DNA of 30,043 nt from Clostridiales bacterium (GCA_012728445.1 JAAYFA010000315.1:1-30043); one strand, 5' to 3'; numbered from the stretch's first letter, positions 5,002-10,540 are shown. Made by a program: numbers and translations. Notes: generated from the letters alone by a model not told the origin.

Positions 5002-5052
5002 CTTACTTGTGCTGTTTAGGTGAACAATCAAAAAGAAAGATCCGGGTGTACC

Positions 5053-6573
5053 ATGAAAGAAAAAACGGAAACTGCTTACGATATGTATGGTGATGATTCT
5101 GCAATAGACCTTGGCAGAATCGGTGCGGCATTGCTAAATAAACTTTGGTTGATTATTCTGGTTGGCGTGCTGACGTCCACCGTTACATTTTTTTACGCAA
5201 AAGCTACTCACGTCGACAATTATGTTTCAAGCACAACGCTCGCTTTTACTACCACCAGCCGGATTATCGAAAAGGATGAGGACGGCAATGAGATCGATAG
5301 ATTAACCGAAAAAAAACCTTACACAGGGAAGGATGTCGAAAGATACCAGTTTTTGCTCACAAGCGACGTTATGGTTCAAAAGATTTTCGATGCTTTGGGT
5401 GGGGGGTACACTAAGCTCGAGATCGAAAAGTCGCTGGCCGTAAGCAGTTCCCCTATTACGGGTATTTTTATAATCAATGTTACGAGCATTGACGAAGGGT
5501 TTTGCAGGCAAGCTATCGATTATATAATATCAATCTTTCCCGACTATTTGAAGAGCTTTGACACAAGTCTTGGCATTGATGTAATCAAGTATCCAAAGTC
5601 ACCGAGCGTTTCTAACGAAAGCAAGGCAGGAGAAAAAGCTGTTTACGGTTTTATTACAGGCGCGGCGCTGATTATTTTTATTATTTTGGCAACCGAGGTT
5701 TTAAGCGAAACGGTGAAGGAAATAGAAGATATCAGGAGCAAGACAAACATTAAATTCCTGGGCTCAATTCCTGCCGTTGAGGGCGATAAGAAACGCGGGC
5801 GCCATAAAAAACAAACCGGATTGATACTGGCAGACGAAAACAAAGTTAGTTTTTCATTTGTAGAAAGTTTTAAGGCGATAAGAACGAAAGTTGAAGGCAT
5901 TGCTGCCGAAAAGGCATACAAGCTTTTCGTAATAACAAGCACGTTCGAAAACGAGGGTAAAACGACAGTGGCAATAAACCTTGCCTGTGCGCTTGCGCAA
6001 AAGGGGAAGTCTGTGTTGCTCGTCGACTGCGACTTACGCAAACCTTCGATTATGCGCACAGCCGGGATGAAAGATGACGAAAAAAACGGTTTGATACAAA
6101 TCATTAAAGGCGATTCCACCTATAGGGAGGCCATAAGATTTGCGAAGCCCCTCGGTATATCTATTCTGCCAAGTGGCGGTGTATCTTCAAAATCAACGGA
6201 GGTATTGGATGCAGATGTCGTTAAGGACGTGTTCAGAAAGGCTACGGCTGAGTTCGATTTTGTGATTATCGATACTCCCCCCGCACATGTCGTCGCAGAC
6301 TGCCTTGTTGTGGCGCCTCTTGCGGATGCGCTGATTTACACAATAAAGAGAGACTATGCGAAAATCAGCGAAATCAACGAAACACTGGAAGAAATCGCGT
6401 CGGCGGACATTGATATTGTCGGTTCAATCTTAACCATGAGCAATCAAGAAGGCTCAGGGAAATACTTTTCCCGGCGAGGCGGACTTTATTATTACTACCG
6501 ACACCGTAAGGGCTACTATAAAGGGAATTATGCTTACGGTTATGAACCAAGCGATGTCAAAAAGCAGCCATAA
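5053..6573 (+). CDS. Fused polysaccharide co-polymerase (CapA/CpsC/Wzz-like) and BY tyrosine autokinase (CapB/CpsD-like), paralog 1
   Basis: Two TM segments flank a short external domain. Walker A 'ENEGKTT', A' 'VDCDLRKP', Walker B 'IIDTPP', and a Tyr-rich tail 'LYYYYRHRKGYYKGNYAYGY'. The start could instead be the GTG at 5020. Confidence 0.9.
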   Translation: MKEKTETAYDMYGDDSAIDLGRIGAALLNKLWLIILVGVLTSTVTFFYAKATHVDNYVSSTTLAFTTTSRIIEKDEDGNEIDRLTEKKPYTGKDVERYQFLLTSDVMVQKIFDALGGGYTKLEIEKSLAVSSSPITGIFIINVTSIDEGFCRQAIDYIISIFPDYLKSFDTSLGIDVIKYPKSPSVSNESKAGEKAVYGFITGAALIIFIILATEVLSETVKEIEDIRSKTNIKFLGSIPAVEGDKKRGRHKKQTGLILADENKVSFSFVESFKAIRTKVEGIAAEKAYKLFVITSTFENEGKTTVAINLACALAQKGKSVLLVDCDLRKPSIMRTAGMKDDEKNGLIQIIKGDSTYREAIRFAKPLGISILPSGGVSSKSTEVLDADVVKDVFRKATAEFDFVIIDTPPAHVVADCLVVAPLADALIYTIKRDYAKISEINETLEEIASADIDIVGSILTMSNQEGSGKYFSRRGGLYYYYRHRKGYYKGNYAYGYEPSDVKKQP

Positions 6574-6684: not shown

Positions 6685-8217
6685 TTGGAACAAAAAACGG
6701 AAAAAAATAGGATTGAAGAAAGCTTTTCCTCGGCATTCCTTGTTCGATTTACCGGTGTGGTTTTCAAAAAGCTGTGGATTTTAGCCGCTGTGGCGTTGAT
6801 TTTCGCTACTTGCTTTTACCTTGTCACAAAGGTGCTTTATGTTGAGGAGTATCGGTCTAAAACTGTTATCGCTGTCACCCAAACCACATATATTACAGGG
6901 TTTGATAAGGATGGTAATGAAATCAAGGTTGTTTCAAAACAAAATATTTATGATGAGAATGACGCAAACAAGTACCAGATGCTTTTAAAAAGCGACCATA
7001 TTACCGGCAAAATAAGCAAAGCACTTGTCGGCCAATACACGCGGCAAGAGATTGCCCAATCGTTGTTGCTTACGAAAGCACAAACATCAGGTATATTTAC
7101 CGTTGTGGTTGCCAACGAAAATGATCACTTTTGCAAGGAAGCAATCAATGTTATTAAAGTAGAGTTCCCGGAATATCTCAAAAGCTTTGACCCGAGTCTT
7201 GGCGTTGTTGTTATTAATGATCCGCAAAAACCTGTAATAAGCAATAAATACGAATCAGCAAAAATGGGTCTACTGGGCTTCTTTATAGGCGCCTTACTTG
7301 TTGTACTAATATTATACATATCCGAGGTGGTCAGAGACACCATTAAAACAGCTGAAGATGTCCGTTACAGGCTGAACATCAAGGTTCTGGGCACAATGCC
7401 TACAATCGAGCATTACAGGCGTTTGTTTAGTAACAAAAAGCTCATGCGCTGTCCTATCTTGACCAACGAAAACAAGGTAAGCTTTTCCTTTATCGAAAGT
7501 TTTAAAGCAATCAGAACTAAAATTGAAAACAGTGTAGATGGCAGCGGTAACAAAGTGTTTGCGGTAACGAGCACCTTTGAAAACGAAGGCAAGACGACTG
7601 TAGCGGTCAATTTAGCGAGCGTTCTGTCGCAGAAGGGCAAATCTGTTCTCATCATCGACTGTGATCTGCGCAAGCCTTCGGTTATGCGTATGGTGGGCAT
7701 AAGGGAAGACGGTAAGAACGGCGTGATCCAGGTTGTGAAGAAGGAAGCGGCATGTGCCGACTCGATAAAATATGTGAAGCCTCTCGGGTTTTTTGTTTTA
7801 CCCAGCGGAGGGACAACCAATAAGTCGACCGAGATTGTCGGCGCTGCCGAGTTTAAGGGAATGCTTGAGCGGGTTCGTAAAGAATTTGATTATGTCATTC
7901 TCGACACACCGCCCGCACATGTTGTCTCGGACTGCCTTGTTCTTGCCCCGCTTGTCGACTCACTGATTTTTACCATTCGGGCCGATTACGCCAGAACCAA
8001 GGACATCATCCTTACCATTGAGGAACTTGAAACGACTAATGTGGACATTGTCGGTTCGGTCCTGACCATGGTAGATGAAAAGGACTCGAACAGTTATTTT
8101 TCGGGCTGGGGAGGTTCGGATTATTACCGCAGACGCAAGGGGTATTACAGCGGCTATTATAAAGCCGAAACGAGAGGTTTAAGTGAATCGGAGAAGATGG
8201 AAACCGGGCATGAGTAA
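6685..8217 (+). CDS. Fused polysaccharide co-polymerase and BY tyrosine autokinase, paralog 2
   Basis: TTG start with AAGGAG at 6671-6676. Same architecture and motifs as paralog 1 (ENEGKTT, IDCDLRKP, ILDTPP). Tail 'SYFSGWGGSDYYRRRKGYYSGYY'. Confidence 0.9.
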   Translation: MEQKTEKNRIEESFSSAFLVRFTGVVFKKLWILAAVALIFATCFYLVTKVLYVEEYRSKTVIAVTQTTYITGFDKDGNEIKVVSKQNIYDENDANKYQMLLKSDHITGKISKALVGQYTRQEIAQSLLLTKAQTSGIFTVVVANENDHFCKEAINVIKVEFPEYLKSFDPSLGVVVINDPQKPVISNKYESAKMGLLGFFIGALLVVLILYISEVVRDTIKTAEDVRYRLNIKVLGTMPTIEHYRRLFSNKKLMRCPILTNENKVSFSFIESFKAIRTKIENSVDGSGNKVFAVTSTFENEGKTTVAVNLASVLSQKGKSVLIIDCDLRKPSVMRMVGIREDGKNGVIQVVKKEAACADSIKYVKPLGFFVLPSGGTTNKSTEIVGAAEFKGMLERVRKEFDYVILDTPPAHVVSDCLVLAPLVDSLIFTIRADYARTKDIILTIEELETTNVDIVGSVLTMVDEKDSNSYFSGWGGSDYYRRRKGYYSGYYKAETRGLSESEKMETGHE

Positions 8218-8300
8218 CGAATCGCCGACTTTTACTTTAATGAATGATGATGTGAAAAGAGTCTGCAAGACTTTTTCTCAAATGTTTGGAGGACATGAAA

Positions 8301-9083
8301 ATGCAAGAAGATAAAAAAGATATGAAACTCGCTGTTCTGATTGACTCGGACAATGTTTCGTACAAATATGTCAAGGCAATGATGGACGAAATCGCCCTTT
8401 ACGGCTTGCCGACCATAAAAAGGATATACGGTGACTGGACAACATCGACGGGGGCGGGCTGGAAGACGGTTTTGCTCGATAACGCCATTACACCCATTCA
8501 GCAGTACAGTTACACCACGGGCAAAAACTCAACCGATTCCGCCATGATTATTGACGCAATGGACCTGTTGTACAGCGAGCGGGTTGATGGGTTCTGTATT
8601 GTGTCAAGCGACAGTGACTTTACGCGCTTGGCAATCCGCCTGAGAGAAGCGGGGCTCAAAGTTTATGGGATAGGCGAGAAGAAAACACCCGAACCCTTCA
8701 TCGCGGCGTGCGACAAGTTTATTTATTTGGAAATATTGACCAATAAAGACGGGAAAAAGGATGTCGAAACAAAATCGGCTACCGGAACACGCCCGGCAAT
8801 CCAAAAAGCGCATGTAAATAAGATCTCCGAAGAGGTTGCCAGTCTTATTATCAATTCGGTCAATGATGTTGCCGATGAGGAAGGATGGGCGTTCCTGGGT
8901 GATGTGGGCAACCTGTTGCTTAAAAAGCAGCCCGCATTTGATAGCAGGAACTACGGCTATACAAAACTGACTCCTCTGATTCAGTCAACCGGTCTTTTCG
9001 ACATTGACCAAAGAGACACCTCTAACAGAGGCATAAAGCACATTTTTATAAGAGATAAAGCATTTGTTCAAAACGGCAAGTAG
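8301..9083 (+). CDS. NYN-domain (LabA/DUF88, PIN-like) protein with a C-terminal OST-HTH/LOTUS domain
   Basis: 'AVLIDSDNV', 'RIYGDW', 'GKNSTDSAMIIDAMDLLY', 'IVSSDSDFTRLAIRLREAG', and C-terminal 'GWAFLGDVG...FDSRNYGY.KL'. GGAGG at 8288-8292 favours the ATG at 8301. Confidence 0.88.
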   Translation: MQEDKKDMKLAVLIDSDNVSYKYVKAMMDEIALYGLPTIKRIYGDWTTSTGAGWKTVLLDNAITPIQQYSYTTGKNSTDSAMIIDAMDLLYSERVDGFCIVSSDSDFTRLAIRLREAGLKVYGIGEKKTPEPFIAACDKFIYLEILTNKDGKKDVETKSATGTRPAIQKAHVNKISEEVASLIINSVNDVADEEGWAFLGDVGNLLLKKQPAFDSRNYGYTKLTPLIQSTGLFDIDQRDTSNRGIKHIFIRDKAFVQNGK

Positions 9084-9250
9084 GATGATGCGTTATTGTT
9101 TATAAAAAAGGCGAACGGGTGCAGATAAAGATAATTTCTTATTCGAAACCAAAAAAGCTTATAGGTATGATAAAATGTAACCGGCAATAGTAATAGTATG
9201 ATGATTTTACTTTCTTTAATACGATATGTCTTTATTGTGAGGTGAAAGAA

Positions 9251-9391
9251 ATGAATATCGATCCTGAAATGCTTCTCAAGATCCTTGAAGATGCAACAGT
9301 ATTTTTGATGAAATTCTTTGGCATCAGTTTGCCCGACATTATCGCCCAATTGCAGCCTTTGATTCAGGCTATCATCGCTTTGTTCGCATAG
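9251..9391 (+). CDS. Small hydrophobic/amphipathic peptide 1, 46 aa: MNIDPEMLLKILEDATVFLMKFFGISLPDIIAQLQPLIQAIIALFA
   Basis: Translated by hand, as it is below the ORF-track cutoff. GAGGTG RBS at 9239-9244, 6 nt before the ATG. A strong hairpin follows the stop, and the C-terminus is similar to peptide 2. Confidence 0.75.
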   Translation: MNIDPEMLLKILEDATVFLMKFFGISLPDIIAQLQPLIQAIIALFA

Positions 9392-9410
9392 TAAAAACTT
9401 TGTTTAGAGC

Positions 9411-9450
9411 GGCCGGCATACAATCATTTAATGTATGCCGGCCTATCCTT
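9411..9450 (+). terminator. Probable intrinsic terminator after peptide 1
   Basis: Perfect 12-bp stem GGCCGGCATACA (9411-9422) / TGTATGCCGGCC (9432-9443), followed by a pyrimidine-rich but imperfect U-tract (TATCCTTT). Confidence 0.65.
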
Positions 9451-9608
9451 TCGTGACATTTTCGATTGACAGTAAAGCTGAGCGAAAACTGCAATGGAGA
9501 AAACATGCGATTGTGCCAAAAAGACAATAAAAATCATCGGACATGTGCTAACATATGTGTTAGATAAAATGATATCCTGGAAATTAAGCTGAAAGAGAGG
9601 TGAATGTA

Positions 9609-9746
9609 ATGGAATTAAAAGAGATTCTCGACATTATTGCTCTTATTGTTAAAAACGCTGATTTTACGGTAGTTCTGGACGCTTTTAAGCAGCTTTTGCC
9701 GGTAATAGAAAGAATTATTTCTCTCTTTGCCATGATCTTCGCATAA
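9609..9746 (+). CDS. Small hydrophobic/amphipathic peptide 2, 45 aa: MELKEILDIIALIVKNADFTVVLDAFKQLLPVIERIISLFAMIFA
   Basis: Translated by hand. GAGGTG RBS at 9597-9602, 6 nt before the ATG. A hairpin follows the stop, and the C-terminus is similar to peptide 1. Confidence 0.75.
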   Translation: MELKEILDIIALIVKNADFTVVLDAFKQLLPVIERIISLFAMIFA

Positions 9747-9773
9747 CGACAATCAAAAAAATCTTGATAAAAG

Positions 9774-9808
9774 ATGAAAGGTGCAGCGTGAGTTGCGCCT
9801 TTCATTAT
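9774..9808 (+). terminator. Probable terminator hairpin after peptide 2
   Basis: ATGAAAGGTGCAGC-gtga-GTTGCGCCTTTCAT, a 14-bp stem that includes G-U pairs. Confidence 0.6.
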
Positions 9809-9890
9809 TGATAGACAAGTGTTTTTTGATGCTTTAGGAGAGGTTTTTCAAAAATAAACGGAAATATTTGAAAAAATAAAAAAATAAGTG

Positions 9891-9919
9891 TTGCATTCTA
9901 TAAAGCATTGTGATAATAT
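9891..9919 (+). promoter_or_regulatory. Sigma-A-type promoter of the S10 operon with an A-rich UP element
   Basis: TTGCAT (9891-9896), a 17-bp spacer, then TAATAT (9914-9919) with TG at 9911-9912. A-tracts lie upstream at about 9871-9888. Confidence 0.7.
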
Positions 9920-10228: not shown

Positions 10229-10540
10229 ATGGCAGTTAAGGGGAAAATCAGAATCAGACTCAAAGGGTATGATCACAACCTAGTCGACAAGTCAGCGGAA
10301 AAAATAGTTGAAACAGCAAAACGTACCGGCGCACAGGTTTCAGGTCCCGTTCCGCTCCCGACCGAAAAAGAGATCATCACGGTTCTTCGTGCGGTGCACA
10401 AGTAGAAGGATGCACGCGAGCAGTTTGAGCAACGCACACACAAAAGGCTTATCGACATCATCGGGCCTTCCGCCAAAACGGTAGAAGCACTAACCGGTCT
10501 TGAGCTACCGGCCGGCGTAGAAATTGAGATCAAGCTCTAA
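10229..10540 (+). CDS. rpsJ: 30S ribosomal protein S10 (uS10/NusE), interrupted by an in-frame TAG at codon 59
   Basis: [20 protein letters not shown]...[42 protein letters not shown]...[14 protein letters not shown]. The 103-codon frame is full length apart from TAG at 10403-10405. RBS AAGGAGG at 10215-10221. Confidence 0.95.

Follow-up and report, generated by a model that had tools for sequence, protein, structure and literature searches.

A conserved tandem family of small anionic amphipathic peptides in one genus of uncultured Acutalibacteraceae

Introduction

What is encoded by two very short reading frames that lie between a polysaccharide locus and the S10 ribosomal operon of an uncultured member of the Clostridia, and are they genes at all? 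The stretch of DNA that carries them (the window; 30,043 nucleotides) belongs to a MAG of 2.4 Mb in 412 contigs, assigned to an uncultured Acutalibacteraceae, and recurs in nearly identical form in metagenomes from manure, wastewater, bioreactor, bovine and air samples. A sequence-only reading had taken the two frames, here named pepA and pepB, for a tandem pair of paralogous, anionic and amphipathic peptides. It had likened them in physical properties to the PSM-beta peptides of staphylococci, and had supposed a clostridial family of leaderless peptides placed just downstream of an EPS locus.

Peptides of the PSM type shape the biofilms, the spreading and the virulence of staphylococci. The PSM-beta peptides are exported in N-formylated form via a Pmt-type ABC exporter, stand under the control of Agr quorum sensing, and have cytolytic and amyloid activities. 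Our search of the literature found no PSM-type peptides outside the staphylococci and their close allies, a clostridial counterpart included, and the family that we present here has not been described before.

Results

Two small genes with one layout

Two frames of 46 and 45 aa are indeed present, with coordinates and translations in agreement (Table 1), and the layout that had been described for them was re-found at both: the motif GATAAAATG upstream (9169-9177 for pepA and 9563-9571 for pepB), a GAGGTG ribosome-binding site 6 nt from the ATG, and a strong hairpin past the stop. Likewise, a recount returned the claimed 9 identities over 14 C-terminal positions and the common gene end TTCGCATA(G/A), and a count of composition gave the claimed net charges of -3 for pepA and -2 for pepB, with Cys, Trp, Tyr and His absent from both peptides. 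That the two form a paralogous tandem pair is borne out by BLASTP, which aligns pepA with pepB over their C-terminal parts at 10/18 identities (E 8e-5). When the proteins are aligned, the LFA at the end of pepA falls opposite an LFA inside pepB, which extends four residues (MIFA) past this point. The description of the pair as unannotated holds for the window only: NCBI MAG records carry close relatives as hypothetical proteins (P0014, P0020).

Table 1. Features of the window around pepA and pepB, with the RNA recorded over them in runs X19 and X20
Feature	Position	Strand	Remarks
NYN/OST-HTH gene	8286-9083		between the polysaccharide genes and pepA
RNA over the end of the NYN gene	8900-9052		X19: 0; X20: 0
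A/T-rich element	9133-9156	+	AATTTCTTATTCGAAACCAAAAAA; conserved; upstream of the pepA -10 box
pepA extended -10 element	9168-9176	+	TGATAAAAT; same site as the GATAAAATG motif; TGnTAnAAT in 4/4 aligned species
pepA ribosome-binding site	9239-9244	+	GAGGTG; ATG 6 nt away; TTATTGTGAGGTGAAA invariant across four species
pepA	9251-9391	+	ATG 9251, stop TAG 9389-9391; 46 aa (P0001); anionic amphipathic peptide, two helices predicted
RNA over pepA			X19: 9092-9344, depth 8.9; X20: 9197-9415, depth 16.1
Hairpin past pepA	9411-9443	+	12-bp GC-rich stem, weak U tract; -24.2 kcal/mol, z -4.7
RNA over the spacer between the genes	9461-9511		X19: 0; X20: 0
Inverted repeat and pepB -10-like box	9548-9570	+	CTAACA-TATG-TGTTAG, perfect (9548-9563), abuts TAAAAT (9565-9570)
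pepB ribosome-binding site	9597-9602	+	GAGGTG; ATG 6 nt away; GGTG invariant in four aligned species
pepB	9609-9746	+	ATG 9609, stop TAA 9744-9746; 45 aa (P0002); anionic amphipathic peptide, two helices predicted
RNA over pepB			X19: 9577-9743, depth 21.1; X20: 9540-9701, depth 3.9
RNA over the spacer past pepB	9767-9919		X19: 0; X20: 0
Cassette terminator hairpin	9773-9806	+	15-bp stem; -25.3 kcal/mol, z -6.5; S10 operon promoter and leader next
S10-Clostridia leader RF03136	9978-10058		downstream of the cassette terminator
RNA over rpsJ			X19: 5.2; X20: about 0

Coding capacity and expression

Both frames are intact in every species looked at, and Nei-Gojobori estimates over four or five species place dN/dS at 0.03-0.16 for pepA and at 0.13-0.51 for pepB, with dS at 0.5-2.3. 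Orthologues of pepA are 68-87% identical; those of pepB, in L042, L052, L053, G276 and L073, were located via synteny, a word-based protein search having missed them.

Transcription was looked for in two sludge metatranscriptomes of one study (runs X19 and X20), available as assembled, unstranded contigs. In both runs contigs lie over both genes: pepA and pepB are transcribed, as read from unstranded contigs of this one study. The RNA depth over the two genes is at least that over rpsJ in either run, and falls to zero over the end of the NYN gene and over the spacer segments listed in Table 1. A DNA run covers every segment that was compared in the RNA runs, so that these gaps argue against DNA carry-over, and the coverage suggests that the RNAs of pepA and pepB are discrete, abundant transcripts. 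In X19 the pepB contig starts at 9577, which is 7 nt past the -10-like box. The pepA contigs start at 9092 and 9197 and thus bracket the predicted transcription start near 9183; since the two starts differ, they do not pin it to one position.

A lost frame, a dN/dS near 1 and a lack of transcription had been named beforehand as the findings that would count against the pair, and on all three we found the opposite. We regard it as virtually certain that pepA and pepB are real protein-coding genes of a small peptide family.

Promoters, hairpins and the spacer

A DNA alignment of four species served as the conservation map, in which the -10 box, the A/T block, TTATTGTGAGGTGAAA, both ORFs and the final terminator are conserved, and the spacers poorly so. 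In the other three species the segment 9133-9180 keeps 69-83% identity, and the sequence immediately preceding it 43-69%; the A/T-rich element within 9133-9180 could serve as a -35/UP-like region or be bound by a regulator. Readings as a sporulation-sigma or SigH promoter were dropped by eye, and a sigma-A extended -10 box is preferred. RNA structure in the two 5' UTRs is not significant (z 0.27 and -0.16). Each hairpin was compared with 200 shuffles, of which none (0/200 for either) folded as well. The hairpin past pepA is likely a partial internal terminator, and the one that closes the cassette persists in four species; where the window has GAAAGG/CCTTTC, L042 has the compensatory GACAGG/CCTGTC.

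Upstream of pepB, the inverted repeat and the adjoining -10-like box form a putative separate promoter, possibly with the repeat as its operator; no clear -35 box was seen at this site, and the site is not conserved in G276. The spacer between the two genes (9392-9596 in the window) carries an insertion of ~190 nt relative to L042 and L052: its length is ~30 nt in L042, ~65 nt in L052 and ~215-250 nt in the window and G276. A hairpin within the insertion, GCCGGCATAC...GTATGCCGGC, is common to the window and G276 and absent from L042 and L052. Set against each other, the short, hairpin-free spacers of L042 and L052 and the insertion in the window and G276 make an ancestral single operon most likely for the pair, to which the hairpin within the spacer and a second promoter-like site with GATAAAATG were most likely added later. 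The notion that each gene has a hairpin of its own is correct for the window, where both are present, and does not extend to L042 and L052, which lack the separate hairpin and promoter arrangement that pepB owes to the insertion.

Genomic neighbourhood

Upstream of the NYN/OST-HTH gene lie polysaccharide genes for a GT2, a pyruvyl transferase, a GH88, CpsB and two fused Wzz/P-loop kinase paralogues, and downstream of the RF03136 leader follow the S10, spc and alpha ribosomal operons. The two kinase-type paralogues, of ~510 aa each, are adjacent (5020-6573 and 6685-8217), pair an N-terminal part that resembles Wzz with a P-loop (BY-kinase-like) domain, and stand at the end of the polysaccharide locus. 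On the other side of the cassette, rpsJ (10229-10540) has an in-frame TAG at 10403-10405, where the window reads HK-stop-KD and L042 and L073 read HKYKD, with Tyr; the frame past the TAG runs normally to the usual end, and a sequencing or assembly variant, a mutation and recoding are candidate causes.

Neither the annotation of the window nor the neighbourhood holds an exporter or regulator gene near the cassette, and none of the loci compared has a regulator gene adjoining it, as an Rgg/SHP or RRNPP pheromone system would. A functional tie of the peptides to the EPS locus or to the NYN gene was considered and found no support: the adjacency is limited to one genus, and the end of the NYN gene is not co-transcribed. 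The position just downstream of an EPS locus, to which the sequence-only reading had drawn attention, stands as synteny within this genus, with no further link.

A family of one genus

The family alignment (A6) comprises 28 distinct members. Within one Acutalibacteraceae genus of 11 species, 9 of the 11 genomes carry the family, only directly after the NYN/OST-HTH gene and with the cassette always between that gene and the S10 operon; as to the two remaining genomes, in one the contig breaks off at this place, and the other, at 62% completeness, has no match to NYN. Copy number ranges from one (L073, G778, G781 and G782) through two (the window, L042, L052 and G276) and three (G777 and G783) to four (G384). 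No paralogues occur elsewhere in the organism's own genome, and such ORFs are likewise absent downstream of NYN orthologues of at most 70% identity in genomes of other genera.

How far does the family reach? A ten-member profile run against 1.84 billion protein representatives gave six real matches only, all of 30-72 aa, and a 16-member profile run against a set of 5.8 billion proteins gave 25 small proteins, whose sole name is 'hypothetical protein' of Clostridia MAGs. Profiles searched in six frames against 400 genomes of the taxonomic family (twice) and against 400 genomes of the order did not find the peptides outside their own genus, bar a marginal match in genus g145, and each single peptide searched against 200 genomes of the taxonomic family returned noise only. 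As far as such searches can detect it, the family appears to be confined to one Acutalibacteraceae genus. The expectation of a broad clostridial family must be given up: profile and six-frame searches place it essentially in one genus. The more general proposal of a conserved tandem family of leaderless anionic amphipathic peptides survives as to conservation, tandem arrangement and helicity, and falls as to a Clostridia-wide range.

The last genes of the longer cassettes (the fourth in L046/L065, the third in L080 and in L086) are the most divergent members, of 39-52 aa; they end in -GLFS, -LFGGAVG or -SLIG, and the Pro kink is absent from them. Such divergent, kink-free last genes suggest that new copies still arise and diverge at the 3' end of the array. 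In a G384-like species with four peptides, the last peptide gene and the S10 leader are separated by a Thr-rich ORF of 215 aa (L047:1631-2278), which has a lipoprotein-type signal (..LSLLSAC) and no Pfam match on record.

The marginal match, in two species of genus g145 (L100, L101), is a 44-aa acidic amphipathic peptide that scores ~22 bits, at E 3-5e-4 per genome, mainly over an EIL..GIDF block. Its gene, at 1492-1623 on the minus strand of L101 and at the corresponding position of L100, is preceded by a perfect, TG-extended TTGACA-17-TATTAT promoter and an AAAGGAG ribosome site, and followed by a terminator; its neighbours in L101 are a tyrosine-recombinase gene on one side and an AbrB-like gene on the other. 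This peptide may be a distant relative that resides on a mobile element.

Physical design and predicted structure

All 28 members are 39-52 aa long, without signal peptide or Cys, with a charge of 0 to -8 and a GRAVY of 0.58-1.59, and Trp is absent from 22 of them. Amphipathicity, measured as the summed hydrophobic moment of two helices against 1000 shuffles, reaches z = 2.9 in pepA and z = 3.9 in pepB and spans z 2.4-4.5 across the members, with a periodicity in both halves that clearly exceeds what amino-acid content would give. Several elements recur: the N-terminal helix reads E/D-I-L-x-I-L, the turn at the centre G-I-(D/S)-(L/F) or D-F, the second helix usually has a Pro kink (L-x-P-V-I-E), and the C-terminus is greasy and ends in -LFA, -LFS or -FGF. 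AlphaFold2 predicts helices at 5-23 and 27-45 in pepA and at 3-16 and 19-44 in pepB, with a mean pLDDT of 84 for each. The best 19-residue Kyte-Doolittle mean of the two peptides is 1.5-1.6, and charged residues come every 3-4 positions. A prediction of a pepA-pepB complex, which was run without controls, scored 0.00 and speaks neither for nor against binding.

Searches of family libraries named no known relative, and fold comparisons tell little about a peptide of two helices. None of the 28 members had a consistent match in Pfam, NCBIfam or PHROGs, Foldseek found no PDB structure at E<=0.001, and a shape search of the ESM Atlas returned only partial overlaps with large unrelated proteins. 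The best Z of a wide VIA-align search, 4.7 for TatA, was set aside as within noise. Also rejected was the sole match of a PDB profile search, to the 34-residue TAL-effector repeat (2ypf, 3ugm), in which many insignificant matches add up to an E of 0.0066, with an E of more than 1000 for each single repeat. The TAL repeat (..E.V..I....GG..ALE.V..LLPVL) and the family both form a hairpin of two helices, the second of them kinked by Pro; since no repeat is significant by itself, the likeness is probably one of convergence.

Comparison with PSM-beta

In a feature search of the ESM Atlas, PSM-beta clusters were, independently for either peptide, the best named neighbours (0.76 for pepA; 0.85 for pepB, which shares 168/256 features), at scores below a level that shuffled proteins also reach, so that the likeness counts as a lead only. 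The PSM-beta family PF05480 (25-bit cut-off) matched none of the 28 members at E<=5, and in a six-frame search of the organism's own genome at E<=10 it matched neither peptide. Conversely, the HMM of the family scored ~1 bit, equal to shuffles, on PSM-beta1 and PSM-beta2 (sequences as given in PMC7732344), and hhalign put the probability of a match between the family and PSM-beta at 0.2%. PSM-beta is the closest analogue of the family, and not a relative; the original comparison, which had spoken of shared physical properties and claimed no homology, was well judged on both points.

The likeness lies in a length of ~44 aa, in the lack of a leader or signal peptide, in helicity, in a net negative charge, and in tandem paralogues with strong expression signals. 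Amphipathicity is of the same kind (z 2.8-2.9 for PSM-beta1/2 and 2.4-4.5 for the family). The family is, however, more hydrophobic, with its GRAVY of 0.58-1.59 against 0.57-0.61, and often more acidic, with charges down to -8 against -1. It also belongs to anaerobic Acutalibacteraceae of manure, wastewater and digesters, a phylum-level lineage unlike that of the staphylococci.

Discussion

What might these peptides do? If they are made in bulk, as we suppose, the product would be one that is needed in large amounts. Each helix would be greasy over a wide face and acidic over a narrow one, and peptides with such faces should act at an interface between water and lipid or between water and a surface, where they may self-associate or coat membranes, the cell surface or the matrix. 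Release would probably be leaderless, like that of staphylococcal PSM-beta, of which the peptides would be functional analogues without common descent. By this analogy we put forward, as a plausible if tentative reading, that they are abundant interface- or membrane-active peptides with a PSM-like mechanism. More doubtful is the further idea that they represent an independent clostridial invention of released PSM-type surfactant, matrix or amyloid-scaffold, or membrane-active peptides in digester and gut communities, and an instance of wider, lineage-specific arrays of acidic micro-proteins in uncultured Clostridia. Being more hydrophobic and more acidic than PSM-beta, the peptides could instead remain in or on the producer's own membrane.

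Or could they be micro-proteins internal to the cell, which would sit in the cytoplasm or at the inner membrane face, modulate a protein or membrane complex in the manner of Sda, SpoVM or AcrZ, and not be released? Most characterised bacterial small proteins do work inside the cell, and an internal role would fit both with the lack of a signal peptide and a neighbouring exporter and with a fixed core-genome locus under vertical inheritance and purifying selection. However, rapid divergence with gain and loss of copies (1-4) within the genus suits a conserved partner poorly, and very high hydrophobicity with mRNA at or above the level of rpsJ suits a bulk product better than a regulator; we consider such a role possible, and somewhat improbable. 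An outward action of another kind would be that of a leaderless multi-peptide bacteriocin, of the sort of enterocin L50A/B, aureocin A70 or garvicin KS, which permeabilises the membranes of competitors. What the two have in common is leaderless helical peptides (39-52 aa here, 30-53 aa there) encoded by adjacent paralogous genes (1-4 here, diverging fast between species; 2-4 there). Known leaderless bacteriocins are nonetheless strongly cationic, rich in Lys and Trp, and encoded in clusters with transporter and immunity genes, whereas the family here is anionic or neutral (0 to -8 in 28/28 members), with almost no Trp. Immunity, ABC-transporter and accessory genes are absent from its neighbourhood, where EPS, NYN/OST-HTH and S10 genes stand in every locus, and its chromosomal site is fixed in the core genome of 9 of the 11 species, not strain-variable. 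The NCBIfam circular-bacteriocin family matches just one of the 28 members, at a marginal E of 0.038, and we find a bacteriocin decidedly unlikely.

Type I toxins such as Fst and TxpA, which have one transmembrane helix with a charged tail and are repressed by antisense RNA, are small hydrophobic peptides without signal sequence too. Membrane peptides held down in this way would agree with small hydrophobic ORFs that have strong hairpins, and with unstranded RNA contigs, which are compatible with antisense transcripts. In contrast to these toxins, the family has no uninterrupted transmembrane stretch and, in the AlphaFold2 models, two amphipathic helices with charges throughout; the peptides are anionic and not cationic-tailed, their ribosome sites are strong and unmasked, their mRNA is abundant, and the minus strand has 5 promoter-like sites against 3.9 in shuffles. 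We hold a toxin of this type to be very unlikely. As for a regulatory or non-coding RNA region before the S10 operon in which the ORFs arose by chance, the frames are short, adjoin a known cis-regulatory leader and have no Pfam or NCBIfam match; their dN/dS well under 1, their intact frames and conserved ribosome sites, the amphipathic periodicity kept across 28 diverged members, and 5' UTRs without significant RNA structure all speak against this, and render it improbable in the extreme.

To return to the reading of abundant, interface- or membrane-active peptides, what we describe would be an independently evolved family with a PSM-type design, whose mRNA is among the organism's more abundant. 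Should the peptides prove to be released and surface-active, they would hint at a convergent and general strategy for surface or matrix chemistry, or for membrane attack, in anaerobic Firmicutes, and would offer new anionic amphipathic peptides for study. Should they prove to be ordinary intracellular micro-proteins, they would constitute a well-documented new family of small proteins with a narrow range. The family is small, cleanly bounded and cheap to make, and what its peptides do for these bacteria is thus directly testable.
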